Origin: Candidatus Babeliales bacterium
Lineage (GTDB): Bacteria > Babelota > Babeliae > Babelales > JANWKD01
NCBI GenBank assembly: GCA_963701665.1
Contig: OY969622.1
Span: 569,159 to 633,158 of the forward strand
DNA length: 64,000 nt
Direction of reading: 5' to 3'
Shown: piece after piece, positions 12,367-58,518 of the stretch
How positions within the stretch are numbered: position 1 is the first letter of the stretch
How the letters are laid out: every line of letters starts with the position of its first letter
Notes under the pieces: model-generated
What the model was told of the DNA's origin: nothing
The model's input: only the letters and a program-made list of their open reading frames with translations
The model's database searches: none
Made by a program: the position numbers and the translations under genes

Positions 12367-12396
12367 TAATTTTTCAATCATAAAAAGGATTTTCTT

Positions 12397-14070
12397 ATGC
12401 AAAAGAGAATGCCATTGAGCTTTTTCATAATTATTATGATTAGTTTTAAGCTCTGTGCCTGGGCAAAAGATAATGGTAAAAAAGATGCAGATTTTATAAA
12501 GAGGTTTGGAGAAGAATATTTTAAGGTACCTGTTGAGAAGGATGATAATAACGATCTATATATTAATGCATGTGAATTAATAAATCTTTTCCAAACAATT
12601 GTCTTTGAAACAATGAATGATATATTTGCTGAAATAACAGATGAAAGGCTTGAAGGATTTCAGATTGAGCAATCCCCTACTAAGCAACCTGAAAAGGTGA
12701 CTCTATATACAAGTGTAGCAGAGCAAAATAATAAAACGGGGCATGAAAAAATTGTACAATTAATTTCTACTATTTTAATGCAAAAAAGTTTAAAGGAAAC
12801 AGTCAATTTTGTTAAACAAATATCGCCAGAAACAAAAAAGGTCATTAAAGAAATAATTAATACTCCTGATAAACATTGGAGTAATACATTTTTACACAAA
12901 GCTTCAACCGCTTTGGAAGTAGAGCAACTTTTGTTACTTGGAGCAGATCCTGAAATAAAAAATGAGTTAGGGCGAACACCATTAATGGCGTTACTTTTTG
13001 ATGGTAAATGTGAAGCAGCCAAGATGCTTATTTCGAAATTACCTTCATTTGATTTTTCTATGGTAGATAATGAAGGTGCAAATTTAACACTATGTGCTGT
13101 TCGCAGTGGTGATACTAAAATTGTAGATTTATTCTTGAAAAAAGGTGGGAGTTTAAATAGCGAAGTAGGCGGAGTAACACCTTTACTGATAGCCGTAGGT
13201 GCAAGAAATATACCAATGGTTAGGTATTTATTAAAGTTAGGAGTTGATGTTAATCAGGCGATTACCGCTACAGATTTTTCGGATTCTAATCGGGAAAATC
13301 TGCCTGATACCTCTGATATTATAGGGGTAACGCCGCTTATGATGGCAGCCTCAAATGACGATGGTGAGATGGTAAGATTATTATTAAAAGCAGGAGCGAA
13401 TGTTAATGCAATGTGCCTAGATGGTTCAACAGCATTGATAAAATCTTTGGCAGGATCAAATGTGTTTAAGATCCTAATTGATGCTGGTGCAAATGTTAAT
13501 GTAACAACACATAATGGGTTTACGGCTTTATTAGCTGCAACAATAATACAGCCAAATGCTATTATGCCATTATTGAAAGCTGGGGCGTTGGCTAATAGTG
13601 AAATTTCTAAGGACTATTTTATTCCCGATATGCCTTCTGTTAATTTGCAAGGGTTAACGCCATTATTAATGGCGATAAAAAATGCACCAGATACTGTACT
13701 GTTTCTTATTGATGCTGGTGCAAATATCAACCACAGAACAGATGAAGGACTTACACCTCTCATGATGGCGGTCATTTCAAACAACATTGATTTAATTTCT
13801 CAGTTACTTGAAAAAGGAGCGCAAGTAAATTGTGCAATGATATGTGACAGTCCGTATCTAAAAGTGCTGTTGCAAGATTGTTTATCATCAAAATTTGATG
13901 CAGACACAACAGGATTAACGCCACTTATGATAGCAACAATTTTAGATGAAGCGCCTACCGTTACTATTTTGCTAAAGCATGGTGCTGATAGAAATGTAAA
14001 AAATGCAAAGGGACTTACTGCTTTGAATATGGCAATCATGAAAAATATTGCAGAGATATTATCAGTTTAA
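12397..14070 (+). CDS. Secreted ankyrin-repeat protein
   Basis: The N-terminus is signal-like (MPLSFFIIIMISFKLCAWA). At least 8 ANK units are present, for example GVTPLMMAASNDDGEMVRLLLKAGANVN and GLTPLMIATILDEAPTVTILLKHGADRN. Confidence 0.85.
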   Translation: MQKRMPLSFFIIIMISFKLCAWAKDNGKKDADFIKRFGEEYFKVPVEKDDNNDLYINACELINLFQTIVFETMNDIFAEITDERLEGFQIEQSPTKQPEKVTLYTSVAEQNNKTGHEKIVQLISTILMQKSLKETVNFVKQISPETKKVIKEIINTPDKHWSNTFLHKASTALEVEQLLLLGADPEIKNELGRTPLMALLFDGKCEAAKMLISKLPSFDFSMVDNEGANLTLCAVRSGDTKIVDLFLKKGGSLNSEVGGVTPLLIAVGARNIPMVRYLLKLGVDVNQAITATDFSDSNRENLPDTSDIIGVTPLMMAASNDDGEMVRLLLKAGANVNAMCLDGSTALIKSLAGSNVFKILIDAGANVNVTTHNGFTALLAATIIQPNAIMPLLKAGALANSEISKDYFIPDMPSVNLQGLTPLLMAIKNAPDTVLFLIDAGANINHRTDEGLTPLMMAVISNNIDLISQLLEKGAQVNCAMICDSPYLKVLLQDCLSSKFDADTTGLTPLMIATILDEAPTVTILLKHGADRNVKNAKGLTALNMAIMKNIAEILSV

Positions 14071-44494: not shown

Positions 44495-44884
44495 ATGAAA
44501 AATATAAAAAGTTTTGTGATAATATTTTCATTGTTCTTGGTTGAGTGTTCTTATATGAATGCTATGGATTATGAAACACAAAAAATTATGGTGCTTCTTA
44601 CTCCTTGGATAGAGAGAAAAGAACTTGCATTACAATACATGGATGAGGCAATACAATCAAACAGCGTCAAAAAAGTTGAAGAAACTATTCAAAAAATCAA
44701 AGTAATAACAATCTTTAATCCTGAAACAAAAATTATAGATCTTCAAGTTGGTCAATTATCTGATAGTATAGAATATTCATTATTTATGAGATGGCTTGAT
44801 TTAGCAAATAATACTGAAGAACCGCAAAAAAAAGCTGATTCAATAGCAAAAAATTCATCGAGCTGGTGGTGTTCTTTGCAATAA
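44495..44884 (+). CDS. Hypothetical secreted protein
   Basis: 129-aa ORF with a signal-like start (KSFVIIFSLFLVECSYMNA), followed by a terminator. Confidence 0.45.
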   Translation: MKNIKSFVIIFSLFLVECSYMNAMDYETQKIMVLLTPWIERKELALQYMDEAIQSNSVKKVEETIQKIKVITIFNPETKIIDLQVGQLSDSIEYSLFMRWLDLANNTEEPQKKADSIAKNSSSWWCSLQ

Positions 44885-44906
44885 ATTTAATTCAAGTAAT
44901 TATGGT

Positions 44907-44937
44907 AGAGCTCTTTTTTCAAAGAGCTCTTTTTTTC
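44907..44937. terminator. Rho-independent terminator (usable in both directions)
   Basis: The stem is AGAGCTCTTT / AAAGAGCTCT, followed by TTTTTTT. It sits between convergent genes. Confidence 0.75.
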
Positions 44938-44938
44938 T

Positions 44939-45406
44939 TTAATTCAAAACACTTTTTTTATCAGGTTTCCACTGTTTTAAAATTTCTTTTAAAAGCGCAT
45001 CTTGCAAAGATTCTTTTGATGAATCTTCATCAAGTTTTGAACTTGCTTTTACAAGACTTGATTCAACCATTTCATTGGTACAAATGGTGGCATCGAGATG
45101 ATTAAGCGCCGGAATTAAATTTCTTTCTACAGTCTTTTTTACCCCAAGCTCATTTGTTGTTTCATGAAGAAGTATATCAAGCAAACTTAAAAAATCAGCG
45201 ATGCTATTTTGAATATGTGCATCTGAAGTTTGTAATTCGATAGTGTCATCAGTTTTTTCAATTGAATCACGAAACCCTTGGCGTACGGCACGTGCAATAA
45301 TTTTCTTTAAGGCTTCAGCTTCATGATCAACAAGCCATTGGAGCAAATACAAAAGCTCATAGGAGAGTACAAATTGTCCGTTATTAGTATTAAATGAATC
45401 AGGCAT
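44939..45406 (-). CDS. Hypothetical acidic helical protein, third gene of the hspR-htpX unit
   Basis: 155-aa ORF starting 11 nt after the htpX stop, on the same strand. No motif recognised. Confidence 0.5.
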   Translation of the reverse strand: MPDSFNTNNGQFVLSYELLYLLQWLVDHEAEALKKIIARAVRQGFRDSIEKTDDTIELQTSDAHIQNSIADFLSLLDILLHETTNELGVKKTVERNLIPALNHLDATICTNEMVESSLVKASSKLDEDSSKESLQDALLKEILKQWKPDKKSVLN

Positions 45407-45417
45407 GCTTTACCTCC

Positions 45418-46302
45418 TTAATAGTGTTTGTTTAACATTTTTCGTAATCGTTCAACACGCTGTTGTACCGGTGGATGTGTGGAAAATAAATTACTCCACT
45501 GCATTGTGGTAAATGGATTGACGATAAATAATGAAGCAGTAGCAGCTTTAGCTGGTTCTTTTTGTGCATCAAAATGCTCACGTTGTACGTTGGTCTGTAA
45601 TTTTTCTAGTGCTGATGCGAGCGCAAGGGGTTCGCGCGAATAATGTGCACCCGATTCGTCAGCCATAAACTCTCGGGACCTAGAGATGGCAAATTGAATG
45701 AGTGCAGCAGCAATAGGCATAAGCACGGCAACAATAATCATAACGATCGGATTGCTCCCTCTTTTATTTGAGCGAGAGTTGCTGAGGGTACCCCAAAATG
45801 CTGCGTGTTGCATCATATTTGCTAAATAGCCAATAGCAGTTGCCATGGTTGCAGCAATAGTGCTGATCAGAACATCTCTATTTTTAATATGCGATAATTC
45901 GTGTGATAAAACACCGCGCAATTCATCTTCATTTAAGATGCCCAAAATTCCTGTGGTGAGCGCAACAGAAGCATGGCTAGGGTTTCTACCTGTTGCAAAT
46001 GCATTGGCAACGGGAGTAGGTACAAGCCATAATTTAGGCATTGGGATGTTCATGGTATGGGTGAGTTCTTGTACCATCGCATAAATATAGGAATATTTCG
46101 TAGCATCAAGCGGCTGCGCGCGATACATTGATAACACAATTTTTTCTGAAAAAAAATAGGTTATAAAATTCATAATAAGCGAGAGAACGAGTGCAATTTT
46201 CAATCCTTGAGCACCGCCGAATAAGCTGCCGAGTGCAAGGAGGATGCCGCTCATTAAAGCAAGCAACATAACTGTTTTAAAGGTATTGAGTATCATAGGC
46301 AA
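45418..46302 (-). CDS. htpX: Zinc metalloprotease HtpX (M48)
   Basis: The zinc motif is HELSHIKNRD (HExxH). The protein has four TM segments, a downstream REFMADE glutamate and a typical length of 294 aa. Confidence 0.9.
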   Translation of the reverse strand: MPMILNTFKTVMLLALMSGILLALGSLFGGAQGLKIALVLSLIMNFITYFFSEKIVLSMYRAQPLDATKYSYIYAMVQELTHTMNIPMPKLWLVPTPVANAFATGRNPSHASVALTTGILGILNEDELRGVLSHELSHIKNRDVLISTIAATMATAIGYLANMMQHAAFWGTLSNSRSNKRGSNPIVMIIVAVLMPIAAALIQFAISRSREFMADESGAHYSREPLALASALEKLQTNVQREHFDAQKEPAKAATASLFIVNPFTTMQWSNLFSTHPPVQQRVERLRKMLNKHY

Positions 46303-46314
46303 CCTCTTAAGTAA

Positions 46315-46779
46315 CTATTCATCATAATCTATTTTCCATTGAACAAGATCAACAGTTTCGTCCAATGGCGTATTTGTTTCTTGGTTTCTTGCATGTATTT
46401 TTTGTAACATTGGTGTTTGTTTCATATACATTAATTTTTTAGCATTTTCTTGTGCATTTATTTTGCAAACCATGCTTTCTTTAGTAAGTGCATCATTAAC
46501 ATCGTCAAATACAAGGTTCATCTGTTTTTGCAATTTTTGTACTTTTTTTTGTAATTTTAATATCATTTCCACTCCTGCCAAGTTAATGCCAAGTTGATGG
46601 GTTAAGTAGATAATTTCTTCCAGTCTATTAACATCCTCTTCAGAAAAAAGACGTGTATTACCCTCAGATCGTTTTGGGGTAATAAGACCTTCTTTTTCAT
46701 AGAGCCGAATAGTCTGTTGGTGTACTGAAAACATTTCAGCAACAGCCGATATTGAAAAATATCCTTTTTTTCTTTTCAT
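46315..46779 (-). CDS. hspR: MerR-family heat-shock regulator (HspR-like)
   Basis: The N-terminal HTH is YFSISAVAEMFSVHQQTIRLYEKEGLITPKRSEGNTRLFSEEDVNRLEEI. It lies directly upstream of htpX. Confidence 0.75.
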   Translation of the reverse strand: MKRKKGYFSISAVAEMFSVHQQTIRLYEKEGLITPKRSEGNTRLFSEEDVNRLEEIIYLTHQLGINLAGVEMILKLQKKVQKLQKQMNLVFDDVNDALTKESMVCKINAQENAKKLMYMKQTPMLQKIHARNQETNTPLDETVDLVQWKIDYDE

Positions 46780-46805
46780 AGGTTTTTCCCGTTATGAACA
46801 AGTAT

Positions 46806-46850
46806 CTACCTTTATTGGTAGTATGCGCATAAAGCTACTCTATTTTACCA
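46806..46850 (-). promoter_or_regulatory. Candidate hspR promoter (extended -10) with operator-like palindromes
   Basis: Read on the minus strand, TGGTAAAAT (46850-46842) has the TGn+TAAAAT extended -10 form. Just downstream are a perfect 10-bp palindrome TATGCGCATA (46822-46831) and the inverted repeat CTACC-N6-GGTAG (46806-46821), 27-70 nt upstream of the hspR ATG. Confidence 0.3.
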
Positions 46851-47064
46851 CAATTTTTTAAAGAAAGCATTGCATTCGTATGGCCTATCATCAATATTTA
46901 TTCCATAAAATTTCAATCTGAAATTTTGAGGGTTGGTTTTTAATTTTTCAATATTCTTGTATTTAAAGAATACTGTTTGATAAGAAATAAAATAGCCAAT
47001 GTATGCTCTACCTTCATTGACTATTTGTATGAAATAATAGGTTCACAAGGATAAGGAAAGTCTC

Positions 47065-48882
47065 ATGAACATAAGAATGATAGGTGTTTTCCTGGTATGG
47101 CTTTTACCTTGCTTTGGTATGGTACATAATTCAGAAATCAAAAAAGATCTGGCTGTTCTTACCCAGAAATTACAAGCTTTGGGCCTCAATAAAGAAGAAA
47201 GAAAAGGAACTGTCAGATTTACTTCTGAGACCTTGGCAAGTTTAAAAGATTTTGCTCAACGACATGGCATTAGCGACCTTAATGAGGCATTAAGATTAGC
47301 CCTATCAGGGGCGGGTGAAGCGACCGGAGGCCCAGGACCTATACCGAGCTTTCAACCTGTGCCAACCCTAGGCCCTGTGATGCCACCTCCGCCTCCTCCG
47401 CCAGCTCCTCCTGTAGCAGAAGTTAAAACTGGGCCCCCAGTGCTTTCGGCTATAGAAGAAATTGTTGCCGGTGGCAAGAAGCTTAGTCATGTTGGTGGTG
47501 AGAAAAAAGAGTATTCCAAAGAAGAAAAACTAATTTCTGATACAGAATTTTTGAAAGCATTTGATGCCAACACATTTGAAGAGCTCCTGGATAATATAAG
47601 GAATCTACGGGCTGATCCAAAGTATTTAAAAAAAGAGTCGATTAAAGAACCAATAAGGCTAGACCAACCGATAAATCTTGATTTAAATGAGATGCTGACG
47701 ATGAGCAGAACTCTTTTAGCTCTGCTTGAAAAAAAAAATAAAGTTTCCCTTAAACAGATTAATCATGGCTATCTAAAGAGTTATATGTTTGATCCTTCAT
47801 TGTTTGACGAAGGGTATTTTGAAAAACTGAATAATTTGGTTGGTGCTGAATCCGTCAGCCCAAAAAAAACGGAAGTTGCTTATAGTGCGTTTAAAGAAAT
47901 TATGCGTGAACTTATTAATGAAGCGCCTAATCTAGATTATCTTTTAGATGTCATTAAAAATCTGCCTTCTAATCAGAAAAGGATTGTTGTACCCCTTGAA
48001 AAAGCTAAATTTTTGACATTGGAGGGAAAGGATTTTAATACTTTTGAAGCTTTGAAAAATTATAGCAATGCTGGGCGAGATGAAAACTTTGTTAAGGAAC
48101 TAAAAAAGATTGTAAAAGGGTATGAACAAGAAGAAGAAAAAATAGATACACTTTTAGCCAATTATTTAGTCTATGTTAAGTTTGATAGTGCTGTTATGAA
48201 TATCTTTAGAGATAAAGGAATAACGTCAAGTCGCGAAGTTTACGATGCGCTTCAGGAACTGAATGTTGATGAAAAATATGATAAAGCGGTTATACAACCT
48301 TTACTAAAAAAACTTACGGCATTGAAACGTACTCCTCAAAAAATTTATCTTCTGTTAAAACAACGTATAAAACATTCACATCTTGTTGAAAATATAGAAC
48401 AGGATATTAGAAAAAAAATAGAACCATATGGATTATTAGTAATGTTGCTGAAATTTTTCAATAAATATTTTGCAAACAATAATGATCCTCAATTTCGTCT
48501 GATATGTGTAAAAGCGCTGAAAACAGCACTTTCAGATTTACATGAGCATGGTAGCTTTATTAACGTAATTAAAAAAATGAAAAAGAAATTAAATAAAGGG
48601 AATGAGACTCTCAATAGGAATATTATTGCGATGAGTGATGATTTTCAGAAATTTCTAAAAAAGACATCGGGTAATAAAGAGAGCTATAAAAAAGGGACTA
48701 TTAATCCAATGTTAAATTATTTGATTCCTGAAGCTCTTAATGCACTTAATGAAGCTAAATCAGATGCTTTTACTAACGCCGTCGGTGGTTTTATTGCCAA
48801 CGCTAAAATGCCTGGATTGCTGGAAAAATATAATGCTTTTGCTGCACTATTTGATAAGAATTTAGCAAAGGCGTTTGCATAA
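47065..48882 (+). CDS. Secreted protein with a polyproline tract and a WH2-like motif (candidate actin-targeting effector)
   Basis: The N-terminus is signal-like (MIGVFLVWLLPCFG). MPPPPPPPAPP (47380-47412) is followed 8 aa later by PVLSAIEEIVAGGKKLSHV (47438-47493). The rest of the protein is helical and K/E/N-rich. Confidence 0.6.
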   Translation: MNIRMIGVFLVWLLPCFGMVHNSEIKKDLAVLTQKLQALGLNKEERKGTVRFTSETLASLKDFAQRHGISDLNEALRLALSGAGEATGGPGPIPSFQPVPTLGPVMPPPPPPPAPPVAEVKTGPPVLSAIEEIVAGGKKLSHVGGEKKEYSKEEKLISDTEFLKAFDANTFEELLDNIRNLRADPKYLKKESIKEPIRLDQPINLDLNEMLTMSRTLLALLEKKNKVSLKQINHGYLKSYMFDPSLFDEGYFEKLNNLVGAESVSPKKTEVAYSAFKEIMRELINEAPNLDYLLDVIKNLPSNQKRIVVPLEKAKFLTLEGKDFNTFEALKNYSNAGRDENFVKELKKIVKGYEQEEEKIDTLLANYLVYVKFDSAVMNIFRDKGITSSREVYDALQELNVDEKYDKAVIQPLLKKLTALKRTPQKIYLLLKQRIKHSHLVENIEQDIRKKIEPYGLLVMLLKFFNKYFANNNDPQFRLICVKALKTALSDLHEHGSFINVIKKMKKKLNKGNETLNRNIIAMSDDFQKFLKKTSGNKESYKKGTINPMLNYLIPEALNALNEAKSDAFTNAVGGFIANAKMPGLLEKYNAFAALFDKNLAKAFA

Positions 48883-48898
48883 GGGAGAACCGGGTATT

Positions 48899-50011
48899 TT
48901 ACACATTAAACTTGATGTTGATGATATCGCCATCCTGAACAATGTATTCTTGGCCTTCAGTTTTCATTTTGCCTTTTTCTTTTACCTTAGCTTCACTGCC
49001 TAAAGCAAAAAGATCTGCGCAATTAAAAACATCAGCACAGATAAACCCTCGTTCAAGATCCGAGTGAATTTCGCCGCCCGCTTGGCGTACTGTTTTCCCT
49101 CGCGTGAATGGCCACGCGTGTATTTCTTTTGGCCCGCACGTAAAGAAGGTTATGAGCCCGAGGTTGCTGTATGTTTTTTTAATAATTTCATCAAGGCCGC
49201 GCGCTTTAATGCCCATAAAACCCATCATTTGTTCAGCTTCATCATCGGGTAATTGCGAAAGTTCGTATTCCAATTTTGCACTGATTGGAATTACTTTCTC
49301 TGGTCCAAATTTTTTCACCAAAGATTGGTAATATGTATTTGATTCATAACCGCCTTGTTCAGCTTCGTGCTCAGCAATATTGGCAACGATCAGGAAATTT
49401 TTTGTAGTAAGTAGTGGTACTGTGGCCACCGCATGCTGTTTTATGGTGGCTTGAACAGATTCTAACGTTCCTTGATTGAGCTCTTTCATCAAAGCTTCTA
49501 AAAGTTGTAACTCTGCCGTAAGTTCTTTAAATTCAGCAGGCTTATTTTTTGCTGATTTTAAAAGATGCTGTACTTTTTCGATGCGTTTGCTGACTGACTC
49601 AATATCTTTGAGCATAAGTTCGGCATTAATAATATCGAAATCGTTAAGTGGATCTATATCAGCACTCGTGTGAATAATATTAGGATCAGAAAAACAACGT
49701 ACGACATGAATAATGAGATCAACTTCACGAATATGACTAAGAAATTGATTGCCAAGCCCCTCGCCTGAAGCTGCCCCTTTAACAAGGCCTGCAATGTCAA
49801 CAAAACTAACCGTGGCAGGGATCTGTTTTTGGCTGTTATAGATTTTTTGAAGTTTTGTAAGACGCTCATCTGGCACATTGGTTATGGCAACATGAGGATC
49901 AATGGTGCAAAAAGGATAATTTTCTGCGGGTACCGCAGATTTTGTCAATGCATTAAAAAGGGTTGATTTTCCAACATTGGGTAATCCAACAAGGCCAGCG
50001 CGTATACTCAT
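48899..50011 (-). CDS. ychF: Ribosome-binding ATPase YchF
   Basis: The G1 motif is GLVGLPNVGKSTLFNALT, followed by PFCTIDP, DIAGLVKGAS and the C-terminal TGS-like EYIVQDGDIINIKFNV. The start was chosen at MSIRAGLVG (ATG 50011). Confidence 0.95.
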   Translation of the reverse strand: MSIRAGLVGLPNVGKSTLFNALTKSAVPAENYPFCTIDPHVAITNVPDERLTKLQKIYNSQKQIPATVSFVDIAGLVKGAASGEGLGNQFLSHIREVDLIIHVVRCFSDPNIIHTSADIDPLNDFDIINAELMLKDIESVSKRIEKVQHLLKSAKNKPAEFKELTAELQLLEALMKELNQGTLESVQATIKQHAVATVPLLTTKNFLIVANIAEHEAEQGGYESNTYYQSLVKKFGPEKVIPISAKLEYELSQLPDDEAEQMMGFMGIKARGLDEIIKKTYSNLGLITFFTCGPKEIHAWPFTRGKTVRQAGGEIHSDLERGFICADVFNCADLFALGSEAKVKEKGKMKTEGQEYIVQDGDIINIKFNV

Positions 50012-50186
50012 GGGAAATAATATCCTTAGCAAATAAAACAATATCACTTCTAGTCTGCTTTAAAAAACAAATTTTATCAAATAACGCATCATAGTAATTT
50101 TATAAATTGAAATTATTGATTTTAAATTAATGTCTTTTGTATTCTATTAATAACTATAAAGGGCAGAGTAATTTTTGAGGAACAGT

Positions 50187-53108
50187 ATGATAAAAAAGCG
50201 GTATATTCTTGGGCTTTTGTTGAGTGTTATTTGTATTACCGTATTAGAAACCATGGTTGCAGGTGAACGTGTTGTTGAAGAAAAACCATGGAAACCTGCT
50301 GAAGAGCCGAAATCTGTTGAGGAAGCGAAAAGGCTTCAAGAAATAGCTCGTAAAGAAGAATTGGCGGCAGAAAAGAAGCTTGAAGAAGCAAAAAAGGCAA
50401 AAGACACCGAGGAGATGCGTAAACAACAGGCTCTTGTGGATAAAGCACAATTTGATTGGAATACTGCTGATGCAGTTATAACTAATTTAGGTGTACTGCA
50501 AGATCCTGCTCAATCTAAAGAAATGAAAAAATCCGCACAGGAAACATTGGAGAATCGAAAAATTGAGATAACCCAAAAGATTAGAGAATATGAAAAAGCA
50601 TTAGCAGGAACTGGTACATCTACAGGAACGGGCACTCAAAATGCCGTTAAGAGCTATCAAGAAAAAGTTGCAACTGAATTACAAGGACTCTCAGAGAAAC
50701 AAATCTTGGGAGAATTAAAAGCAGAGATTGATGCTCTTGTATCAGGTGGTTATTCATCTACAGCAAAAAAACAGGGAAGAGATATTCCCTATAGTGAGCG
50801 TAAGGCTATGCTTGAGTTCCTAGAAAATACACTCAATGCACGAGTAAAAACGCAAAGTCCCGAAGTTGCTGCATTGAAAAACAGTATTGTTGATACGATT
50901 GAGAATATTGATAATCTCGGTAAACAAAAACCTATTGCTAATAATGCCATAGATAAAAAGTTTGATCTTTCAGAAAAGATCACGGCAGATCAGATTAGGC
51001 TTTTAAGAAAGCAATTAGTGAAAGATGTTTTTGAAAAAGATTTTAAAACACCTGCAGAACGATTAAAAGCGTTGAATGAAATGCAAAAAATTGTTGATAC
51101 CTATGATATTTACGATGATAAGATTCAGCCCGTGATGGATAAAATTGCCCATCAACCTGATATTGTTGAAGCAAAATTAAAAGAGATTGAGATTGCTAAA
51201 ACTATTGCAGCAAAATTTAATGACGCTTTTGTGACATTAAATGATATGTATGAAAGAATTAAATCGTTAAAATATAACGAGCAAGCGACAATGTTAAAGG
51301 ATTTCCAAAATATGTACAATAAATTTCTTCAAGCCAATGAGAAATCTCCAACATTGGATGCCCAGCAACAATCTGCGCTTAAACAAAAATACGATGACGT
51401 TGTGCGACATGCACAAGAAGTCGATGCATTCTTAAAAAATCCAAAGCAGACAAATCAAACGGCCCTAGAAAAAGATTTAAAATTAGCGGAAAAAATCCCT
51501 TCTGATCAAATTAAAGCCATCATGGATCGTATAGAACTCTTTGGTTATACTAATGCAAGGGAATTAACAGCAAAAGATATTGCTACGTTGAAGGATATAC
51601 GAGACGCTATGGATCATTTCAAATTACAAAAAGAGTACTCTGATGAATATGGGTTCATTGATGATCTTATTAAAGATGCCACAAAATCTGTTATTTCTCT
51701 GCCAGAAGGTCTTACCAAAGAAGATGTTGCATCGACATCCATATTGGGTGAAATTGGTGAAAAAATTACGAGTGGTGTGCAAAACATTAAAGATTTTTTT
51801 GTTAAAGATGGTGCCATAATCGTTAAAAATGCCGCTGAGATTGTAGTATATCCAGCGAAAAAAATTGCAGAAGGCTTTAGTTATATAATTCGCGAGACAG
51901 GGAAGTTTTTACAAAAAACATTCACGGCACCTGAGTTTGTTAATAAAATGGCGGATGCCCCAGAGATGCTTGATGATGTATTAACGAGCATAGCTAATCT
52001 TGATACCGCAGGTGGCGGTGTTGTTAAAGGAGTGCTCCGAGCTGATATTGGCATACAACAAGTTTTATTAACCGTTGTTGGACAACAAGATGTAGCTGAT
52101 GCATTAGGTGAATTTGCTAAGATTTCTTATAAAGAGCATGTCAATGATCCTATGGTGCAAAAAATTAAAAGATATGTTGATAAAGTTGGCACTGTTGGCA
52201 AAACGCTTAAATCAATCATGGAATTCCCTAAATATATCGGTGAAAAATTAGAGCAAAGTGTAAGAACCAAAAAAGAAACAGCGTCGTTGAGAGAAATAGA
52301 TGAAACGCAGCGACTGATTGAAGAAGAACGTGCGAATATTACATTAGCAAAAGGAGAAGCTAATAAAGAGATTCCAGGTATTAAGCAGTTAGGCGATTTA
52401 CTATTCAAACTGTCGAACTATGTCAGTGATCGTGTATATAACACTAATAAAAGTATTGAAACGGCACAACAAGACTATGAACAAGCGCGCAAAGACTACT
52501 TCGTGGCATTGGGAGTTGATTATAGTGCAAACTTAACACCACAACAGATTGCCGGGAGAATTGAACAAATGAAATTAAGTAGAAATGATAATTTCATTCA
52601 AGCAACAAATAAATTGGCTGACGCGGTTGATCAGTTGGCTTTTGCCTACGAAGTATTGGTTAATAAATTAACGAGTGTTGAGACTAATTTGAAATTCGTT
52701 GTTGATGCATGGGATATGATTATTATATCCCCCGATGGGCAAAATACAGAGCTTCCGGTAATAATAAAAAGTATTTTTACGCTCCGCGACCTTAAATTAG
52801 CTTATTTAGAGGCAACGAGAAATGGCGTTTTACAAATGCAATCTGACGTTGCTAAATTTAAAGATTCTCCATCAGGATTATTGGCTGATGATGCAGTAAC
52901 GCGCTATAGAAGAGTTGTTGATGATAAAATATTTGAGACAATTCAAGAATATGCAAATGCCATGAATCAAATTGATAGAGCAATTGCAGGGCAAAAAGAA
53001 TTTATTGAATCAAAGTTACCAAAAGTAGTGGATGAAACATCAGGCTCAAGCAGTACTGGCACAGGAAACGTACCACCACCAGATACCGGTGGCGGTGGAT
53101 GGGATTAA
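50187..53108 (+). CDS. Large secreted coiled-coil protein
   Basis: 973 aa with the N-terminus MIKKRYILGLLLSVICITVL. Long K/E/Q-rich helical segments are present, along with a GTGTSTGTGT tract, and the C-terminus is SSSTGTGNVPPPDTGGGGWD. Confidence 0.6.
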   Translation: MIKKRYILGLLLSVICITVLETMVAGERVVEEKPWKPAEEPKSVEEAKRLQEIARKEELAAEKKLEEAKKAKDTEEMRKQQALVDKAQFDWNTADAVITNLGVLQDPAQSKEMKKSAQETLENRKIEITQKIREYEKALAGTGTSTGTGTQNAVKSYQEKVATELQGLSEKQILGELKAEIDALVSGGYSSTAKKQGRDIPYSERKAMLEFLENTLNARVKTQSPEVAALKNSIVDTIENIDNLGKQKPIANNAIDKKFDLSEKITADQIRLLRKQLVKDVFEKDFKTPAERLKALNEMQKIVDTYDIYDDKIQPVMDKIAHQPDIVEAKLKEIEIAKTIAAKFNDAFVTLNDMYERIKSLKYNEQATMLKDFQNMYNKFLQANEKSPTLDAQQQSALKQKYDDVVRHAQEVDAFLKNPKQTNQTALEKDLKLAEKIPSDQIKAIMDRIELFGYTNARELTAKDIATLKDIRDAMDHFKLQKEYSDEYGFIDDLIKDATKSVISLPEGLTKEDVASTSILGEIGEKITSGVQNIKDFFVKDGAIIVKNAAEIVVYPAKKIAEGFSYIIRETGKFLQKTFTAPEFVNKMADAPEMLDDVLTSIANLDTAGGGVVKGVLRADIGIQQVLLTVVGQQDVADALGEFAKISYKEHVNDPMVQKIKRYVDKVGTVGKTLKSIMEFPKYIGEKLEQSVRTKKETASLREIDETQRLIEEERANITLAKGEANKEIPGIKQLGDLLFKLSNYVSDRVYNTNKSIETAQQDYEQARKDYFVALGVDYSANLTPQQIAGRIEQMKLSRNDNFIQATNKLADAVDQLAFAYEVLVNKLTSVETNLKFVVDAWDMIIISPDGQNTELPVIIKSIFTLRDLKLAYLEATRNGVLQMQSDVAKFKDSPSGLLADDAVTRYRRVVDDKIFETIQEYANAMNQIDRAIAGQKEFIESKLPKVVDETSGSSSTGTGNVPPPDTGGGGWD

Positions 53109-53198
53109 TCTTAAAACCAAAACTATTGCATATTCAGGCAGTTTATGCAATCATATTTTTTGTTGTTATATAACTGTCATCATAAGAAAGGAGATGAT

Positions 53199-53441
53199 AT
53201 GCATTCACCAATGAAATTTGTTTATTATTTAATTGTTTTTCTTGCAGCATTAGGTTCAATTCATCTTGGATTACTTGCATCAGGCTATGATATTCTCGCT
53301 ATGGCAAATATTTCACACTTATCAAAAGCGTTGTACACAACGTTTGGTGTTTGTGGAGTTTTAACCGTTATTATGTTGTTCATGCATTGCAGTGGCCATT
53401 GCCATGCAGGGTCATGCAACAGCTCATGCGGATGCAAATAA
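53199..53441 (+). CDS. DUF378-like small membrane protein with a Cys/His-rich tail
   Basis: LIVFLAALGSIHLGLLASGYDILAM...LSKALYTTFGVCGVLTVIMLF resembles the DUF378 pattern (GglNWGLvg.f.fDlva...lsr.vY.lvGlaal). The tail is HCSGHCHAGSCNSSCGCK. The ATG at 53199 follows AAGGAG. Confidence 0.55.
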   Translation: MHSPMKFVYYLIVFLAALGSIHLGLLASGYDILAMANISHLSKALYTTFGVCGVLTVIMLFMHCSGHCHAGSCNSSCGCK

Positions 53442-53466
53442 AACTGCAAGTTTTAAAAATAATGAA

Positions 53467-53501
53467 AGAGGTCTGTTACTGTTTACAGGCCTCTTTTTTT
53501 T
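53467..53501. terminator. Rho-independent terminator overlapping the psd 3' end
   Basis: The stem is AGAGGTCTGT / ACAGGCCTCT, with one G-U pair, followed by TTTTTTTT. Confidence 0.65.
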
Positions 53502-54474
53502 GAACTCTATGGCCGATTGATTGTCCCATTTTAATAGGTGTTTCTTTACCTTGTTGTGAATGGTGCACATATTCCTGGCAAAGCTTTATACTTCCCTTTT
53601 TGAATACTAACACGATAGTTGAGCCCCCAAAGCAAAAATATCCCGCTTCATCACCTTTATTATAGTTTTTTTCAGCGACATATGTTTCTTTAATAGCACC
53701 GACAAATAATGCACCAACGCTTACCATGCATACTGGATCGCGGGAATTAGTTTTTAAGAATATGATATGACGCTCGTTTTGTGTGAGCGGCTGTATGCCA
53801 CATAGATATGCTATTGGATTTACGGATTCATAGATACCTTTTATTCGCTGCGCTTTTGATGGTATGCATGAAATAGGAAAATGAAATCGATGATAATCCC
53901 ACGGCGCCAATCTCAAGAGAACGAGTGTTCCGCCTTCATAGTCGTGTGCCAAGCGCGCGTTTGCCAAAAATGTTGCCAGATTAAAATGACATTCTTTTAC
54001 AGGAAAACCCATAGTTTGTGAGATATTTTCAAAGACAAAAATAGTGCCATCTGCAGGAGAAATGATGACATCAGGATTTTTATCAATAGGGCGTGCGCTA
54101 GATTTGAGCTTGCGAATAAAAAATTCATTAAACGTTTTATACGTTGCAAGAGGTTCTTGTGCTTCATGCATATTAATATGATAGCTTTTGACAAACGAGG
54201 GTATCCACCACGAACTTAGTTTGCGATCGCAAAACCATCCAGCGAGTGAGCTTGCCCATGATTTGATCAAACATGAGCGCATTATTTTACCAATGCTATT
54301 GGTATATAAAAAGGAAAGCATAGAAGGTGTTTTTTCAGTGCTCACCGTTGTGCTCATGTTTTTTTTATCTAAAAAAGTTTTTTTATGTATGCTTTTGCTA
54401 TGCATTAAAAAGCAGGCGATAAACAGTATAAAAGCTACTAATTTTTTTTTATTTTTATAACTTTTTTGTGTCAT
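53476..54474 (-). CDS. psd: Phosphatidylserine decarboxylase proenzyme
   Basis: The self-cleavage region is GYFCFGGSTIVLVF (G-S-T), with an upstream DYHRFHFP motif and an N-terminal membrane anchor. The start was chosen at MTQKSYKNKKKLVAFILFIACFLM to avoid overlapping the upstream gene. Confidence 0.85.
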   Translation of the reverse strand: MTQKSYKNKKKLVAFILFIACFLMHSKSIHKKTFLDKKNMSTTVSTEKTPSMLSFLYTNSIGKIMRSCLIKSWASSLAGWFCDRKLSSWWIPSFVKSYHINMHEAQEPLATYKTFNEFFIRKLKSSARPIDKNPDVIISPADGTIFVFENISQTMGFPVKECHFNLATFLANARLAHDYEGGTLVLLRLAPWDYHRFHFPISCIPSKAQRIKGIYESVNPIAYLCGIQPLTQNERHIIFLKTNSRDPVCMVSVGALFVGAIKETYVAEKNYNKGDEAGYFCFGGSTIVLVFKKGSIKLCQEYVHHSQQGKETPIKMGQSIGHRVQKKEACKQ

Positions 54475-54517
54475 CCTCACCCGGCCGCTGATGTGTTTTA
54501 GTTCTGCGGTTCTTGCT

Positions 54518-55771
54518 TTAAAATAGTTTTGATTTTCTAGATTCTTGCTGTAATTTTTTTTGAAACTCAAGCATGTCTAGCTTATTTACACTTCTTGATG
54601 TGGCGTCTTCTATTTGTGACGATATTTTATGTATGGTATCTGATATCGTATTTAAATCTTGTTCCAATAAAGCTATAGATTCAATTATGTGTGAATCATT
54701 ATTGAATTTCTTGCATGTTTTAAATGTAGCATAAAGAGCTTTTTGTTTTTCTATTATTTTCGGTAATGTTGTTAACTCATTTAAGGTCATACCTTTTTGA
54801 GCACCTTTTTTAAATACACTATTTGCATCTGCAAAAAATGAAATATAAAATATTGGATTAATAGGATATAAATGTTCCATTTTAAAAACTCTTTGACAAA
54901 GTTTAACTTGTTTTTTGGAAGATTGAGCAGCGCAAAATTTAGAGATGAATTGGCCAAATTTTAACTCAGCTGCGCAGCGTAATTTAGCAAGTTCATTGTT
55001 CGACAAAAAGATTTTTTTGGCTATCACAATTTTTGGATTTTGTTCTTTATTACAATCAATGCCAGATAAAGCTTTTTTAAGTTTATCTTGTGATGCATAG
55101 GGATCTACATGGAGAACACTATATGGCGATTCATCAGGATAACAAGTAAGCCATAGTTGTGAGAAAGAAATTGCCTCTCTTTTTTTATTATTATTATCAT
55201 AATCAATGCTAATTGGCTGCTCCCCCATTGGATACAATAATGCCTTAAGGTACAAAGCAAGATCTGCATAAAAGGCAAGCAATAATGGTGAGAAAGATAA
55301 TGATGATGCAAAACGTATATTATAACATTTATTTAATTGTGACGTTACTTCATTGTAGAATGCAGCGCCTTCATTATTCGACGAAAGGATTTTTTTGGCT
55401 ACCAGAATTTTTGAATTTTGCTCGTTATTACAATCGATTTCAGATAAAGCTTTTTTAAGTTCTTCTTCTGGCGCATGGGTATCTATGTTGAGAGCACTGT
55501 ACGGTGATTCATTGGGATAACAAGTAAGCCATAGACGTGAGAAAGAAGGTCCCGCTATTTTATTATCCCTGTTAGTTTTTGGTTCATTTAAGACTTTGAG
55601 TGTAGCATGAAGAATGTTTAAAAGACTTATCTCTTTTTTATCATCACATCTACGGTTTTGCTTCTCATCCATTGGATATAATAATGCATTAAAGAAAATA
55701 ATTGTGGTAAGAACAACATACTTCTGAGATCTTATTTTTATCATAAAAATGCCTCGCAATACATGAATCAT
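54518..55771 (-). CDS. Hypothetical protein with an internal tandem duplication of a degenerate J-domain-like unit
   Basis: 417 aa. Two ~145-aa repeats are present: LLYPMDEKQ...FSRLWLTCYPNESPYSALNIDTHAPEEELKKALSEIDCNNEQNSKILVAKKIL and LLYPMGEQP...FSQLWLTCYPDESPYSVLHVDPYASQDKLKKALSGIDCNKEQNPKIVIAKKIF. Confidence 0.55.
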   Translation of the reverse strand: MIHVLRGIFMIKIRSQKYVVLTTIIFFNALLYPMDEKQNRRCDDKKEISLLNILHATLKVLNEPKTNRDNKIAGPSFSRLWLTCYPNESPYSALNIDTHAPEEELKKALSEIDCNNEQNSKILVAKKILSSNNEGAAFYNEVTSQLNKCYNIRFASSLSFSPLLLAFYADLALYLKALLYPMGEQPISIDYDNNNKKREAISFSQLWLTCYPDESPYSVLHVDPYASQDKLKKALSGIDCNKEQNPKIVIAKKIFLSNNELAKLRCAAELKFGQFISKFCAAQSSKKQVKLCQRVFKMEHLYPINPIFYISFFADANSVFKKGAQKGMTLNELTTLPKIIEKQKALYATFKTCKKFNNDSHIIESIALLEQDLNTISDTIHKISSQIEDATSRSVNKLDMLEFQKKLQQESRKSKLF

Positions 55772-55783
55772 ATTTTATTATCT

Positions 55784-55819
55784 GGATTGCCACGCCAACT
55801 GCGTTGGCTCGCAATGACA
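55784..55819. repeat. Solo arm of the palindromic repeat family (inverted orientation)
   Basis: The reverse complement TGTCATTGCGAGCCAACGCAGTTGGCGTGGCAATCC equals the left arm of the 25735/32407 elements. An inserted mini-hairpin CCAAC-GCA-GTTGG distinguishes it. Confidence 0.7.
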
Positions 55820-55950
55820 TCCCTGCATTCTATTATCTACTGTTACTTTTATTATACCATTTATACTTCGTGACGCCTAAAAAGATTTCTATTACACTAA
55901 ACAAATCACTGCTCTACAAGCTCTAGTTATTTAAAAAGGTACTTTTTTGT

Positions 55951-58518
55951 ATGTCATTGGATTTTGCGTCAACACAAGCACTCACACCTTTAATGCAACA
56001 GTATTTTGAAATAAAAAATCAGTATGTCGATGCTTTGGTGCTCTTTCAAGTCGGTGATTTTTATGAACTGTTTTATGATGACGCAAAAAAAGCTGCAGCA
56101 TGTCTTGCCATTGCGCTCACCGCGCGTGGAAAAAATAATGGCGAACCAATTCCTTTGTGTGGCGTGCCTGTGCATGCCATTAATCATTATCTAGCTAAAT
56201 TGGTTTGCGCGGGCTTTAAGGTTGTGCTCTGTAATCAGCTTGAACCTGCAACGCCAGGAAAAGTTGTCGCACGCGGCGTGACGCAAGTTTTTTCGCCAGG
56301 TACGCTGACTGATGCAGCACTTCTCGATGAAAAAAAACCTTCCTATTTATTTTCTTTTTTTCCCGGAAATACGGCACATGCATTACTTTTTGGCGAATTG
56401 CTGACAGCACAATTATGGGCGACCACGATTGCTGCGAATAATACGTATCACGTTGAAACAGAGCTGCAGCGGTTTATGCCCGATGAAGTGTTGCTGCCCT
56501 CGATGAAAGAATCGAAAGAATTTGAAGCTTTTTTTAAAAAATTAGGATATTACACGACAATCATTACACGCGATGATGAAGCGTATGCGCGCGCTACGCA
56601 GTGGATTTCGCCACTGCTTTCAAAAAAAAATGTGAATGGTCATCATGACATTCTATATAATGCGCTCGCACAATTTCACTCGTATATAAAAACTTCGCAC
56701 GCGGCATCGCTCGATCAATTTCAAACACTCGAGTTATATTCACCACAAGAATTTTTAAGTATTGATAGTGCAACGCAAAGAAATCTTGAACTGGTAAAAA
56801 ATATGCATGACGGCACGGTAAAAAATTCGTTATTTCACGTGATGGATGGTGCTGTAACGGCGATGGGTTCCAGGACTATAAAAAAATGGATCGCGCGTCC
56901 GCTTATTGATCGCGAAGCCATTGTGCAACGTCAAGATGCGGTGGAACATTTTGTGTATCACGTTAGCTTTTTGCAAAAAATCCGCACGCTTTTACAACGC
57001 GTGGGAGATGCCGAGCGCATTATTGGGCGCATCATCGTCATGCGAGGGACTATTCATGATTATCGTTCGTTACTTTCTATCTTGGAAACATTGCCCTCGT
57101 TTGCTGCCGGTTTGTCAGATGCATCATTGCCGCTCTTATTGCGCATGATTGGTGCTCTGCTGCAACAAGCTGATTCGCTCGCGCACTATTTAGCCCAAGC
57201 ACTTTCAATTGACAGTACGCAAGAATGGCTTATTGCGCCAAAGTTTGATGCACAGCTTGATGCGTATCGTTTGCTTGTTGAAAAAAGTACCCAGGTATTA
57301 CTTGAATTTGAAAAACGTGAACAAGAGAAAACAAGAATCTCTTCACTCAAAGTTCGGTTTAATTCTGTGCATGGCTATTATATTGAAATTACGCATGCGA
57401 ACGCTCATTTAGTTCCTACTGATTATATGCGCACACAAACGCTCGTTGGCAAAGAACGATACACAACACTCGAATTGAAAAAACTTGAAATCCAGGTGAA
57501 TGAAGCGCGTGCCAACATTGATCAATTAGAAAAGAATATTTTCGCGCGTCTCAAAGCAGAAGTGCACGCGCATGCACCCACACTGCGTCGCATTGCGCGC
57601 GCGTTATCGCAGCTTGATGCATTATTTGGTTTGGCATATATCAGTTATGCACATGGTTTTATACGGCCGACTTTTAATGACACGGCGAATGTGAGCATCA
57701 AACAAGGTAAACATCCGGTGGTAAGTGCGCACGTGAAGACACATTTTATTCCTAATGATACGGCGCTTGATGATGAACACTCTCTGTGGATTATTACTGG
57801 TCCTAACATGGGTGGCAAATCAACCTACTTACGGCAGGTAGCATTAATTAGCGTTATGGCACAATGTGGCTCATTCGTTCCCGCTGCTCATGCGGAGTTG
57901 CCGATTTTTGATAAAATTTTTTCACGCATAGGCGCAGGCGATAATGTTGCTGCAGGAAAAAGTACCTTCTTAATGGAAATGGAAGAAACTGCATTTATCT
58001 GTGCACACGCAACGAACAAAAGTCTTGTAATTTTTGATGAAATTGGGCGAGGGACGAGTACCTTTGATGGGCTTGCACTCGCGCAGGCTGTCCTTGAATA
58101 TGTGCATACGGTGATACGCGCGCGGTGCCTTTTTGCAACCCATTATCATGAATTAACGGCGTTGGCACATCAGTTGAAGGGTATTGTATGTTACCATGCT
58201 GCAAGTAAAAAAACGGCAACAGGTATCTCATTGCTTTATTCAATTTTGCCAGGTTCTGCTGATGGCAGTTTTGGCATTGAAGTGGCAAAAATTGCTCACG
58301 TACCTGATATGATTATTCAGCGTGCGCAAGAACTTGTAACGCAATTAGGCATGCACGTGCCTACTGCATCGAGGGAACATGAAGCGAGTGCCGTAAAAGT
58401 GGATGCGCGTGCATCTGAGCTTTGCGCACTCGTTGAAAAAATAGATTATAATAATTTGTCGCCTAAACACGCGTTTGATATTCTGTGGGCGATGAAAGAA
58501 ATGGTTGAAAAAAAATGA
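55951..58518 (+). CDS. mutS: DNA mismatch repair protein MutS
   Basis: The N-terminal mismatch-binding motifs are TPLMQQYFEIKNQY and FQVGDFYELFYDDA. Walker A is ITGPNMGGKSTYLRQ, followed by STFLMEMEE and DEIGRGTST. The product is 855 aa. Confidence 0.97.
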   Translation: MSLDFASTQALTPLMQQYFEIKNQYVDALVLFQVGDFYELFYDDAKKAAACLAIALTARGKNNGEPIPLCGVPVHAINHYLAKLVCAGFKVVLCNQLEPATPGKVVARGVTQVFSPGTLTDAALLDEKKPSYLFSFFPGNTAHALLFGELLTAQLWATTIAANNTYHVETELQRFMPDEVLLPSMKESKEFEAFFKKLGYYTTIITRDDEAYARATQWISPLLSKKNVNGHHDILYNALAQFHSYIKTSHAASLDQFQTLELYSPQEFLSIDSATQRNLELVKNMHDGTVKNSLFHVMDGAVTAMGSRTIKKWIARPLIDREAIVQRQDAVEHFVYHVSFLQKIRTLLQRVGDAERIIGRIIVMRGTIHDYRSLLSILETLPSFAAGLSDASLPLLLRMIGALLQQADSLAHYLAQALSIDSTQEWLIAPKFDAQLDAYRLLVEKSTQVLLEFEKREQEKTRISSLKVRFNSVHGYYIEITHANAHLVPTDYMRTQTLVGKERYTTLELKKLEIQVNEARANIDQLEKNIFARLKAEVHAHAPTLRRIARALSQLDALFGLAYISYAHGFIRPTFNDTANVSIKQGKHPVVSAHVKTHFIPNDTALDDEHSLWIITGPNMGGKSTYLRQVALISVMAQCGSFVPAAHAELPIFDKIFSRIGAGDNVAAGKSTFLMEMEETAFICAHATNKSLVIFDEIGRGTSTFDGLALAQAVLEYVHTVIRARCLFATHYHELTALAHQLKGIVCYHAASKKTATGISLLYSILPGSADGSFGIEVAKIAHVPDMIIQRAQELVTQLGMHVPTASREHEASAVKVDARASELCALVEKIDYNNLSPKHAFDILWAMKEMVEKK

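Follow-up and report, generated by a model that had tools for sequence, protein, structure and literature searches.

ORF605, an open reading frame (ORF) in a 64,000 nt stretch of DNA from a Candidatus Babeliales bacterium (contig OY969622.1; the whole stretch is called the window below), encodes an exported-looking protein with an uninterrupted polyproline tract. This tract is the best conserved region of an otherwise uncharacterised family, and most of the protein, tract included, is exchanged as a cassette within one species. Judged from the sequence, the tract is more than chance would give. We tentatively take ORF605 to be a candidate effector with which Babeliales would interact with their hosts, exported by Sec, diversifying rapidly and carrying a constrained tract that would bind a host proline module, a reading that we regard as quite possible though still short of probable. 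The first-pass annotation of this DNA had gone further and read the residues following the tract as a WH2 actin-monomer-binding motif and the protein as a host-cytoskeleton effector. That candidacy is supported by the exported look, the constrained tract, the host-dependent lineage and a homolog (P0009) with a USP deubiquitinase and a V-C-A-looking tail, but the WH2 assignment on which it leaned was not supported.

Conservation of the polyproline tract and exchange of the sequence around it

Family members were sought by an exhaustive phmmer search against 1.84 billion cluster representatives, which gave eight real relatives (P0002-P0006 and P0008-P0010). A further match, P0007, was discarded as a spurious repeat protein, and a profile search added P0011. 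The word-indexed search matched only ORF605 itself, on its 1,337,192-bp contig, probably as a result of the polyproline tract swamping the word index, and a scan of metagenome contigs with the module alignment found no family member. The common layout is a leader with a coiled helix, a mini-domain, the proline tract, a variable linker and at least one copy of a family module, to which the longer forms add a C-terminal helical domain (Table 1). In P0009 the proline tract is interrupted.

Bases 47380-47493 encode residues 106-143 of ORF605, MPPPPPPPAPPVAEVKTGPPVLSAIEEIVAGGKKLSHV; tract and downstream string thus lie in the 605-aa ORF just as annotated, and the 8-residue spacing given for them is exact (VAEVKTGP, between APP and PVLS). 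Compared with ORF605 as the query, six short-form members have 75% identity and zero gaps in the tract, and P107, P110 and P113 do not vary in the family. The query reads M-P7-A-P-P, the short-form homologs have from P7 to P11, and the residue ahead of the proline run is G, A, L, V or M. As the codons are mixed (cca cct ccg cct cct ccg cca) the tract is not a slippage repeat. It is the sole run of at least five prolines among window ORFs of at least 100 aa; the DNA has 36.8% GC, and local GC reaches about 50% only across the G/P-rich stretch around the tract. The allele in L083, a 1.32-Mb ENA contig, keeps PPPPPPPAPPV with other codons, all differences being synonymous, in surrounding sequence that has diverged. 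The retention of the tract through synonymous changes only points to purifying selection on it across deeply diverged alleles, the rest being exchangeable.

We infer that the tract would be a ligand of a host proline-recognition module, with profilin as the best-fitting partner, since pure polyproline follows G/A/L/V/M and no consistent FPPPP, PPxY or PxxPx[KR] signature was found across the family. In sequence and predicted disorder it has what characterises profilin ligands of the FH1/VASP type, namely at least about six uninterrupted prolines, a small or hydrophobic residue before them and a flexible region.

The window and L083 share 98.1% DNA identity over 37266-47330 and 98.7% over 48898-57600, and the flanking proteins are 97-100% identical to their L083 counterparts. 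Between these blocks the left breakpoint falls at about residue 89 of ORF605, just upstream of the tract, and the right one at the ychF stop codon. The L083 allele has the same leader and mini-domain, a divergent linker and a single module, and stops at about 285 aa; it lacks the C-terminal helical domain and is followed by a separate exported ORF of 253 aa with an HExxH motif (M50-like). It should be noted that the L083 assembly contains frameshifts typical of long-read error. Residues from about 89 to 605 have been swapped for a divergent cassette within one species, which fits diversifying selection on a host-facing protein. A polymorphic toxin, with constant N-terminus, variable C-terminal toxin and immunity gene, was considered and rejected, because the variable parts of both alleles are homologous family modules and not unrelated toxin domains.

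ORF605 occupies a variable slot between hspR and ychF. In L082 the slot holds P0003, with gene order identical from orf155 to mutS; in L084 it holds P0002, on a contig that covers the ychF side only. P0005 is the occupant in L085 and L086, P0004 in L083 and the 1351-aa P0009 in L081. In L001 and L003, which are more distant (YchF 64-66% identical), other proteins are encoded between the two border genes: unrelated exported ones in the former, glycosidase-like and MYND-type ones in the latter. WD40 and ankyrin proteins are encoded near the slot. The ORF605 orthologs are 27-39% identical, against 80-100% for neighbouring proteins.

UvrA of the window has its best named relatives in Candidatus Babeliales/Candidatus Dependentiae (67-73% identity), and the source is accordingly assigned to the host-dependent Babeliales (Dependentiae/TM6) bacteria. 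The N-terminus of ORF605, MNIR-MIGVFLVWLLPCF-GMVH, looks by inspection like a Sec signal and is predicted by AlphaFold2 (AF2) to form a helix at residues 3-16; the signal-like character pointed out in the first-pass annotation was borne out by equivalent leaders in all full-length homologs. The window also encodes ankyrin-repeat proteins with leaders like that of ORF605. ORF605 has the features expected of Sec-dependent candidate effectors of Dependentiae: the lineage, an N-terminal leader (by inspection), no housekeeping homology and rapid divergence. The paper on Chromulinavorax destructans (PMC6561590) gives 44% of coding sequences in Chromulinavorax as carrying signal peptides and proposes Sec-signal-bearing proteins of Dependentiae, ankyrin ones included, as secreted effectors, and a type II secretion system is described as conserved in Dependentiae/TM6 in PMC4776705.

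Further indications of a role in the host come from P0009. Directly after its leader this protein has an N-terminal USP/UCH deubiquitinase (PF00443, E 8e-42). To our knowledge bacteria have no ubiquitin system, hence the deubiquitinase is expected to work inside a eukaryotic cell, and for this reason we think that the family acts in the host. The C-terminus of P0009 is SLLEQIRRQGQSGLRP - 20 aa - ALAAGFAALEGRL - SEEEEVSDSDSEWELVD, that is, LLEQIRRQG..., an amphipathic helix and then the SEEEEVSDSDSEWELVD ending, which by eye has the look of a WASP-type V-C-A region. When P0009 was shuffled 200,000 times, the helix pattern turned up in the last 90 residues with a frequency of 5.7e-4 and the acidic-tryptophan tail with one of 1e-5, and no shuffle had the two; these patterns were set after viewing the sequence.

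We suggest that ORF605 would be exported by Sec and would reach the host perhaps by one of the routes proposed for Dependentiae, namely type II secretion or outer-membrane vesicles. The exposed polyproline tract would there bind a host proline-recognition module, profilin fitting best, with additional contacts made by the short motif after it and by the helical modules, and diversifying recombination would reshape everything after the tract. Entry into the host, binding of profilin and an effect on actin, if any, are steps that we infer. Several points weigh against this proposal. The family is tiny, with 9 real members in the 1.84 billion representatives, and the conservation statistics rest on few sequences. 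The link between P0009 and the query is weak (E 4e-4), although backed by synteny, and the V-C-A-like tail and the deubiquitinase sit in this distant homolog and not in ORF605; moreover, the tail was not recognised by Pfam, by the PDB search or by BLASTP against the N-WASP VCA. Inspection revealed no secretion-system signal in ORF605 beyond the Sec leader. Proline-rich spacers are also found in bacterial envelope proteins, e.g. TonB, and the cassette replacement fits a surface antigen equally well.

The last three points would also be in keeping with ORF605 being an envelope or surface protein, in which the tract is a rigid polyproline II spacer holding the helical body off an N-terminal anchor or partner, the variability reflects diversification of a surface antigen or receptor, and the WH2-like string is due to chance. 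Cassette replacement is typical of surface-exposed loci, and the string is conserved only at linker level, as this explanation would have it. We nevertheless consider it unlikely. Envelope spacers usually alternate (EP/KP/AP) and tolerate sequence drift, whereas here an uninterrupted run of P7-P11 is kept residue by residue, through synonymous change. The USP deubiquitinase of the homolog P0009 would have no substrate in bacteria, the hydrophobic core of about 13 residues fits, by inspection, a cleavable signal and not a membrane anchor, and the lineage depends on hosts and has many eukaryote-like proteins with a Sec tag.

The WH2-like string

Of the grounds for refutation named in the first-pass annotation, the two that sequence analysis can address, missing PF02205 or ELM support and a motif unconserved among orthologs, largely apply. 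PF02205 gave nothing at E<=10 in the whole protein, in 90-aa and 30-aa fragments, in eight homologs or in their isolated motifs, although all 11 genuine WH2 peptides used as positive controls were detected by Pfam at 14-51 bits (the N-WASP WH2 at 31.7 bits, and ten further peptides from WASP, N-WASP-1, WAVE1, CAP1, WIP, MIM, thymosin beta-4, Las17, Vrp1 and Lmod2). Since HMMER filters can mask weak matches, a proxy WH2 hidden Markov model (HMM) was made from validated peptides and run with --max. Genuine WH2s scored 36-52 bits in this model, whereas the query scored 1.0 bit, P0002 -0.9 and P0006 -1.1, which is the level of random window ORFs. An ELM-style WH2 regular expression, applied to the 48 larger ORFs of the window, gave 42 matches against 40.8 +/- 7.6 in shuffles; it misses residues 125-143, as LSHV has no [KR] after the leucine. 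Relaxing the expression for LSHV gave 21 observed against 13.9 expected matches per 18.5 k residues, which leaves a chance of about 2% for one match no more than 30 residues after the tract. Neither phmmer with the fragment nor a profile made from the family motif found a WH2 or actin-binding peptide among PDB chains, the profile matching only designed helical repeats and RAIDD, and BLASTP of the query motif against the CAP1 WH2 gave no alignment.

Nor is the string conserved in the way the rest of the protein is. In the short forms the segment has 21% identity and 18% gaps, among the least conserved parts and close to the plain linkers (20-23% and 14-26%), as against 43% and 11% for the mini-domain and 39-41% and 0-1% for the two module parts. 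Taken alone, the WH2-like string appears to be no more than chance.

It seems, however, that the string belongs to a loose family motif. The register [ED][ED][IL]-x6-L-[KRS]-x-[TVA] is present in five of the six short forms: EEIVAGGKKLSHV in the query, EDILTQREGLKKT in P0002, WEILAGKRGLRTT in P0004, EDIGVARRGLRSV in P0005 and EELMKKATELKKA in P0006. Chance would seldom give this register (1 match observed, 0.045 expected), therefore a short family-specific motif probably exists, and it could act as a further short binding site. It is absent from the long forms P0008-P0011.

These observations bear on the possibility of a real but degenerate WH2 at residues 125-143, one that would bind G-actin and, together with a profilin-recruiting tract, feed or nucleate actin in the style of RickA, TARP, VopL, BimA or Ena/VASP. 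Known WH2s are highly degenerate, and the position is suitable, in predicted disorder with the proline tract 8 residues upstream. By inspection V126, L127 and I130 (also I133 and V134) fit an amphipathic helix of the LLxxI type; AF2 shows no helix there, as would be expected of a fold-on-binding motif in an unbound prediction. A gapless overlay by eye on the CAP1 WH2 (ALFAQINQGESITHALKHV) gives [LV][FL]xxI-x9-L[KS]HV, with the 9-residue spacing to L-x-H-V in common. The endings of four homologs are canonical in the same register (GLKKT, GLRTT, GLRSV and ELKKA), and both the rarity of the register and the V-C-A-looking tail of P0009 count in its favour. On the other hand, the two halves of a WH2 do not come together in any one protein. 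The query has the hydrophobic helix, but its L-S-H-V lacks the basic residue of the LKKV/LKKT-type feature (L-[KR]-x-[VTA]), and the homologs that do have a good L[KR]x[TVA] end lack the helix upstream, the hydrophobic triad being absent in P0002, P0004 and P0005. In P0003 (621 aa), the only full-length ortholog with fully conserved gene order, neither the helix nor the basic end is clear. Along with the silence of PF02205, the background score in the proxy HMM, the lack of any WH2 among the PDB and CAP1 comparisons, the linker-level conservation and the absence from the long forms, this makes a genuine WH2 improbable in our view. The WH2 identity of residues 125-143 is unproven, and the label should not enter the annotation, as genuine WH2s pass the profile and motif tests in which the string fails.

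Predicted architecture and other features of the window

An AF2 model of ORF605 was built with a 9-sequence alignment and had a mean predicted local distance difference test (pLDDT) of 71.9. Residues 83-147, comprising the tract and the WH2-like string, are mostly below a pLDDT of 50 (stretches 83-108 and 114-147) and without secondary structure, hence we regard them as a predicted disordered linker of about 65 residues in a protein whose remainder is predicted to be folded and helical. Three helices follow over residues 150-195 (pLDDT 81-88).

Table 1. Coordinates of ORF605, its parts, the borders of its slot and the homolog P0009; positions are those of the window unless another contig is named.
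Feature	Residues	Position	Strand	Remarks
ORF605		47065..48882	+	605 aa, exported-looking, fast-evolving; uncharacterised family; no Pfam or NCBIfam match
Signal-peptide-like leader	1-22	47065..47130	+	MNIR, 13-residue hydrophobic core, GMVH; by sequence inspection
Helix-turn-helix mini-domain	47-85	47203..47319	+	G68 and E74 invariant; small
Polyproline tract (P107-P113 + A-P-P)		47383..47412	+	Best conserved region of the family
WH2-like string PVLSAIEEIVAGGKKLSHV	125-143	47437..47493	+	In predicted disordered linker; family-specific short motif, no validated WH2
Family module	158-262	47536..47850	+	SDxxFLxAF...NPxYLKKExL...DYLKxYLFxPxxF; S158, D159, L181, Y187, L221 and Y240 invariant
C-terminal all-helical domain	270-605	47872..48879	+	AF2; most 10-residue blocks with pLDDT of at least 85
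Strain-variable cassette		47331..48897	+	No DNA match in L083 (window vs L083 10096-11642)
hspR, MerR-family heat-shock repressor		46315..46779	-	Conserved left border of variable slot
ychF GTPase		48899..50047	-	Conserved right border of variable slot
P0009		L081 1431-5486		1351 aa, hspR|ychF slot; ankyrin-repeat genes on flanks

The mini-domain follows the pattern xIxLSPETxxxLxxxAQxxGxSxxExLKxAL. All its matches to proteins of the ribbon-helix-helix type were below threshold (CopG_antitoxin 0.0045, NikA-like 0.019 and MatP RHH in the PDB 0.0098), and this identity was not adopted; the mini-domain might serve for dimerisation. A profile of the family module had no match among PDB sequences. 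A villin headpiece was considered for the SDEEFLKAF...LKKE part of the module and rejected, as the spacing is unlike and both PDB and Pfam were without a match. Among the Pfam and NCBIfam results for ORF605, its fragments and its homologs there was no actin-related domain, whether WH2, FH2, VHP or another. The C-terminal helical domain has no recognisable fold relative in a Foldseek search of the AF2 model against the PDB (best E 0.058), and the protein ends in ...FDKNLAKAFA, without an acidic or tryptophan tail.

By inspection, the tract followed by a large all-helical domain resembles the FH1-FH2 order of formins, and ORF605 could be imagined as a formin-like mimic comparable to Rickettsia Sca2, with the tract as FH1, the helical body of about 450 residues as an FH2-like actin-elongating domain and, given the weak ribbon-helix-helix-like matches, a mini-domain that could dimerise. 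Pfam detects no FH2 in ORF605 or its homologs, neither a formin nor Sca2 is among the top 50 Foldseek matches listed, and the L083 allele does entirely without the C-terminal domain. Formin mimicry is hence highly improbable, and we rejected it on the Foldseek and Pfam results.

Leaders in which the hydrophobic core is followed by [G/S/A/P]-M-[H/E/D/N] are common to many exported-looking proteins. They occur at the window N-termini at 47065, 36837, 38195, 39499, 8000 and 54518, in P0003, P0005, P0006 and P0010, and at 12101-12694(-) of L081; examples are FGMVHNS, FSMEEKK, LSMHDIK, VGMNHDK, NGMEEGN, YPMDEKQ and YGMHRND. From its sequence this ending may represent a cleavage or sorting signal peculiar to the lineage.

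At the left border of the slot, the first ~100 bp upstream of hspR (46780-46880) are conserved in comparison with L082 1858-1950 and L085 7759-7850 (...ATGAACA.GTA...GTATG.ACATAA...TTTTACCA..TTTTTTAAGAAAGCAT), and probably constitute the hspR promoter or operator. Two inverted repeats nearer ORF605 in the spacer between the two genes (TATTCTT-N7-AAGAATA and AAAATTTC-N5-GAAATTTT) are not conserved in the relatives. Beyond the right border lies ORF977 (50175-53108), a neighbouring 977-aa exported helical ORFan with orthologs in L082, L084 and L085. It is fast-evolving, with 26-28% identity to L082/L085 against 83% for YchF; the orthologs keep W-x-P-A-x-E-P near the N-terminus and have an S/T/G-rich tail that closes on aromatic and acidic residues (GGGGWD, EEGPYD, GDGEYNG).

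Three tandem paralogous genes with DNA cross-matches of 65-71% are found at 36837-40671. Leader and N-terminal sequence are common to the first two genes, each of which contains ...NDAVLPRAIFNQ..., and the L083 counterparts of the paralogs have ankyrin-repeat Pfam matches; the region looks like a locally expanding effector-like cluster. An element of about 75 bp, detected by off-diagonal blastn at 39429-39506, 40695-40768 and 41347-41477 with 85-93% identity, accompanies the starts of three consecutive genes on the + strand (39499, 40775 and 41417), lying at them or a little upstream. Further, a direct repeat of 197 bp with about 82% identity (54992-55188 and 55370-55566) was found inside ORF 54518-55771 (-), a 417-aa exported-looking ORFan without a family match.

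Relation to known systems and significance

Compared with the WH2 domain (PF02205), the ORF605 string is alike in being short, disordered and beside a proline-rich tract, with a V-L-x-x-I start and an L-x-H-V end, and its homologs end in LKKT, LRTT, LRSV or LKKA. It differs in its proxy-HMM score far below that of genuine WH2s, the missing Pfam match, the missing basic residue after the leucine and the poor conservation, and in that the family never has a good helix and a good LKKT-like end in one member.

Known bacterial actin effectors such as RickA and Sca2 of Rickettsia, TARP of Chlamydia, VopL/VopF of Vibrio, BimA of Burkholderia and Wbm0076 of Wolbachia (PMC9980815) resemble ORF605 in that it too is an exported protein of a host-dependent intracellular bacterium. 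As in effectors of the RickA, TARP, VopL, BimA and Wbm0076 type, pure polyproline lies in disorder and a short amphipathic motif follows, and the V-C-A-looking acidic tail with tryptophan in the distant homolog P0009 recalls the RickA/WASP type. Unlike these proteins, ORF605 shows no sequence homology to them, no C/A region and no detectable WH2, and has no autotransporter, type III or type IV secretion context, export being seemingly Sec-dependent only. WASP/RickA nucleation-promoting factors differ further in their C-terminal central helix and acidic tryptophan tail, which ORF605 lacks. With formins it has in common the polyproline immediately upstream of a large helical domain, but this domain has no FH2 sequence or fold match and is dispensable in the L083 allele.

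There is also a likeness to the ORFan and ankyrin effector candidates of Dependentiae, as far as these are described in the available portions of PMC6561590 and PMC4776705, in the phylum, the leader, the lack of known domains, the nearness to ankyrin genes and the small host-dependent genome. Those portions contain no mention of the ORF605 family, the tract or the cassette variability, and none was found by literature searches, which likewise gave no paper linking Dependentiae with WH2 motifs and none on an actin-directed effector in Dependentiae. We suggest that the ORF605 family is best filed as uncharacterised Dependentiae candidate effectors with a eukaryote-type proline ligand.

A bolder interpretation is that these proteins are an undescribed actin-cytoskeleton effector family of Dependentiae, in which a profilin-recruiting tract is combined with a degenerate, lineage-specific G-actin-binding motif, some members carry a WASP-like V-C-A tail fused to a deubiquitinase, and the business end is exchanged by cassettes in an arms race with protist hosts. 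We think it doubtful that all of this applies; if true, Dependentiae would have their first proposed effector that manipulates actin.

We know of no effector mechanism shown so far for the Dependentiae, a widespread group of obligate protist parasites. The ORF605 family is tiny and restricted to the phylum, but notable for its invariant tract, its within-species cassette replacement and the deubiquitinase with WASP-like tail in P0009. Because of these three features it offers a concrete candidate, cheap to examine, for a first look at possible manipulation of host cytoskeleton or ubiquitin by Dependentiae.

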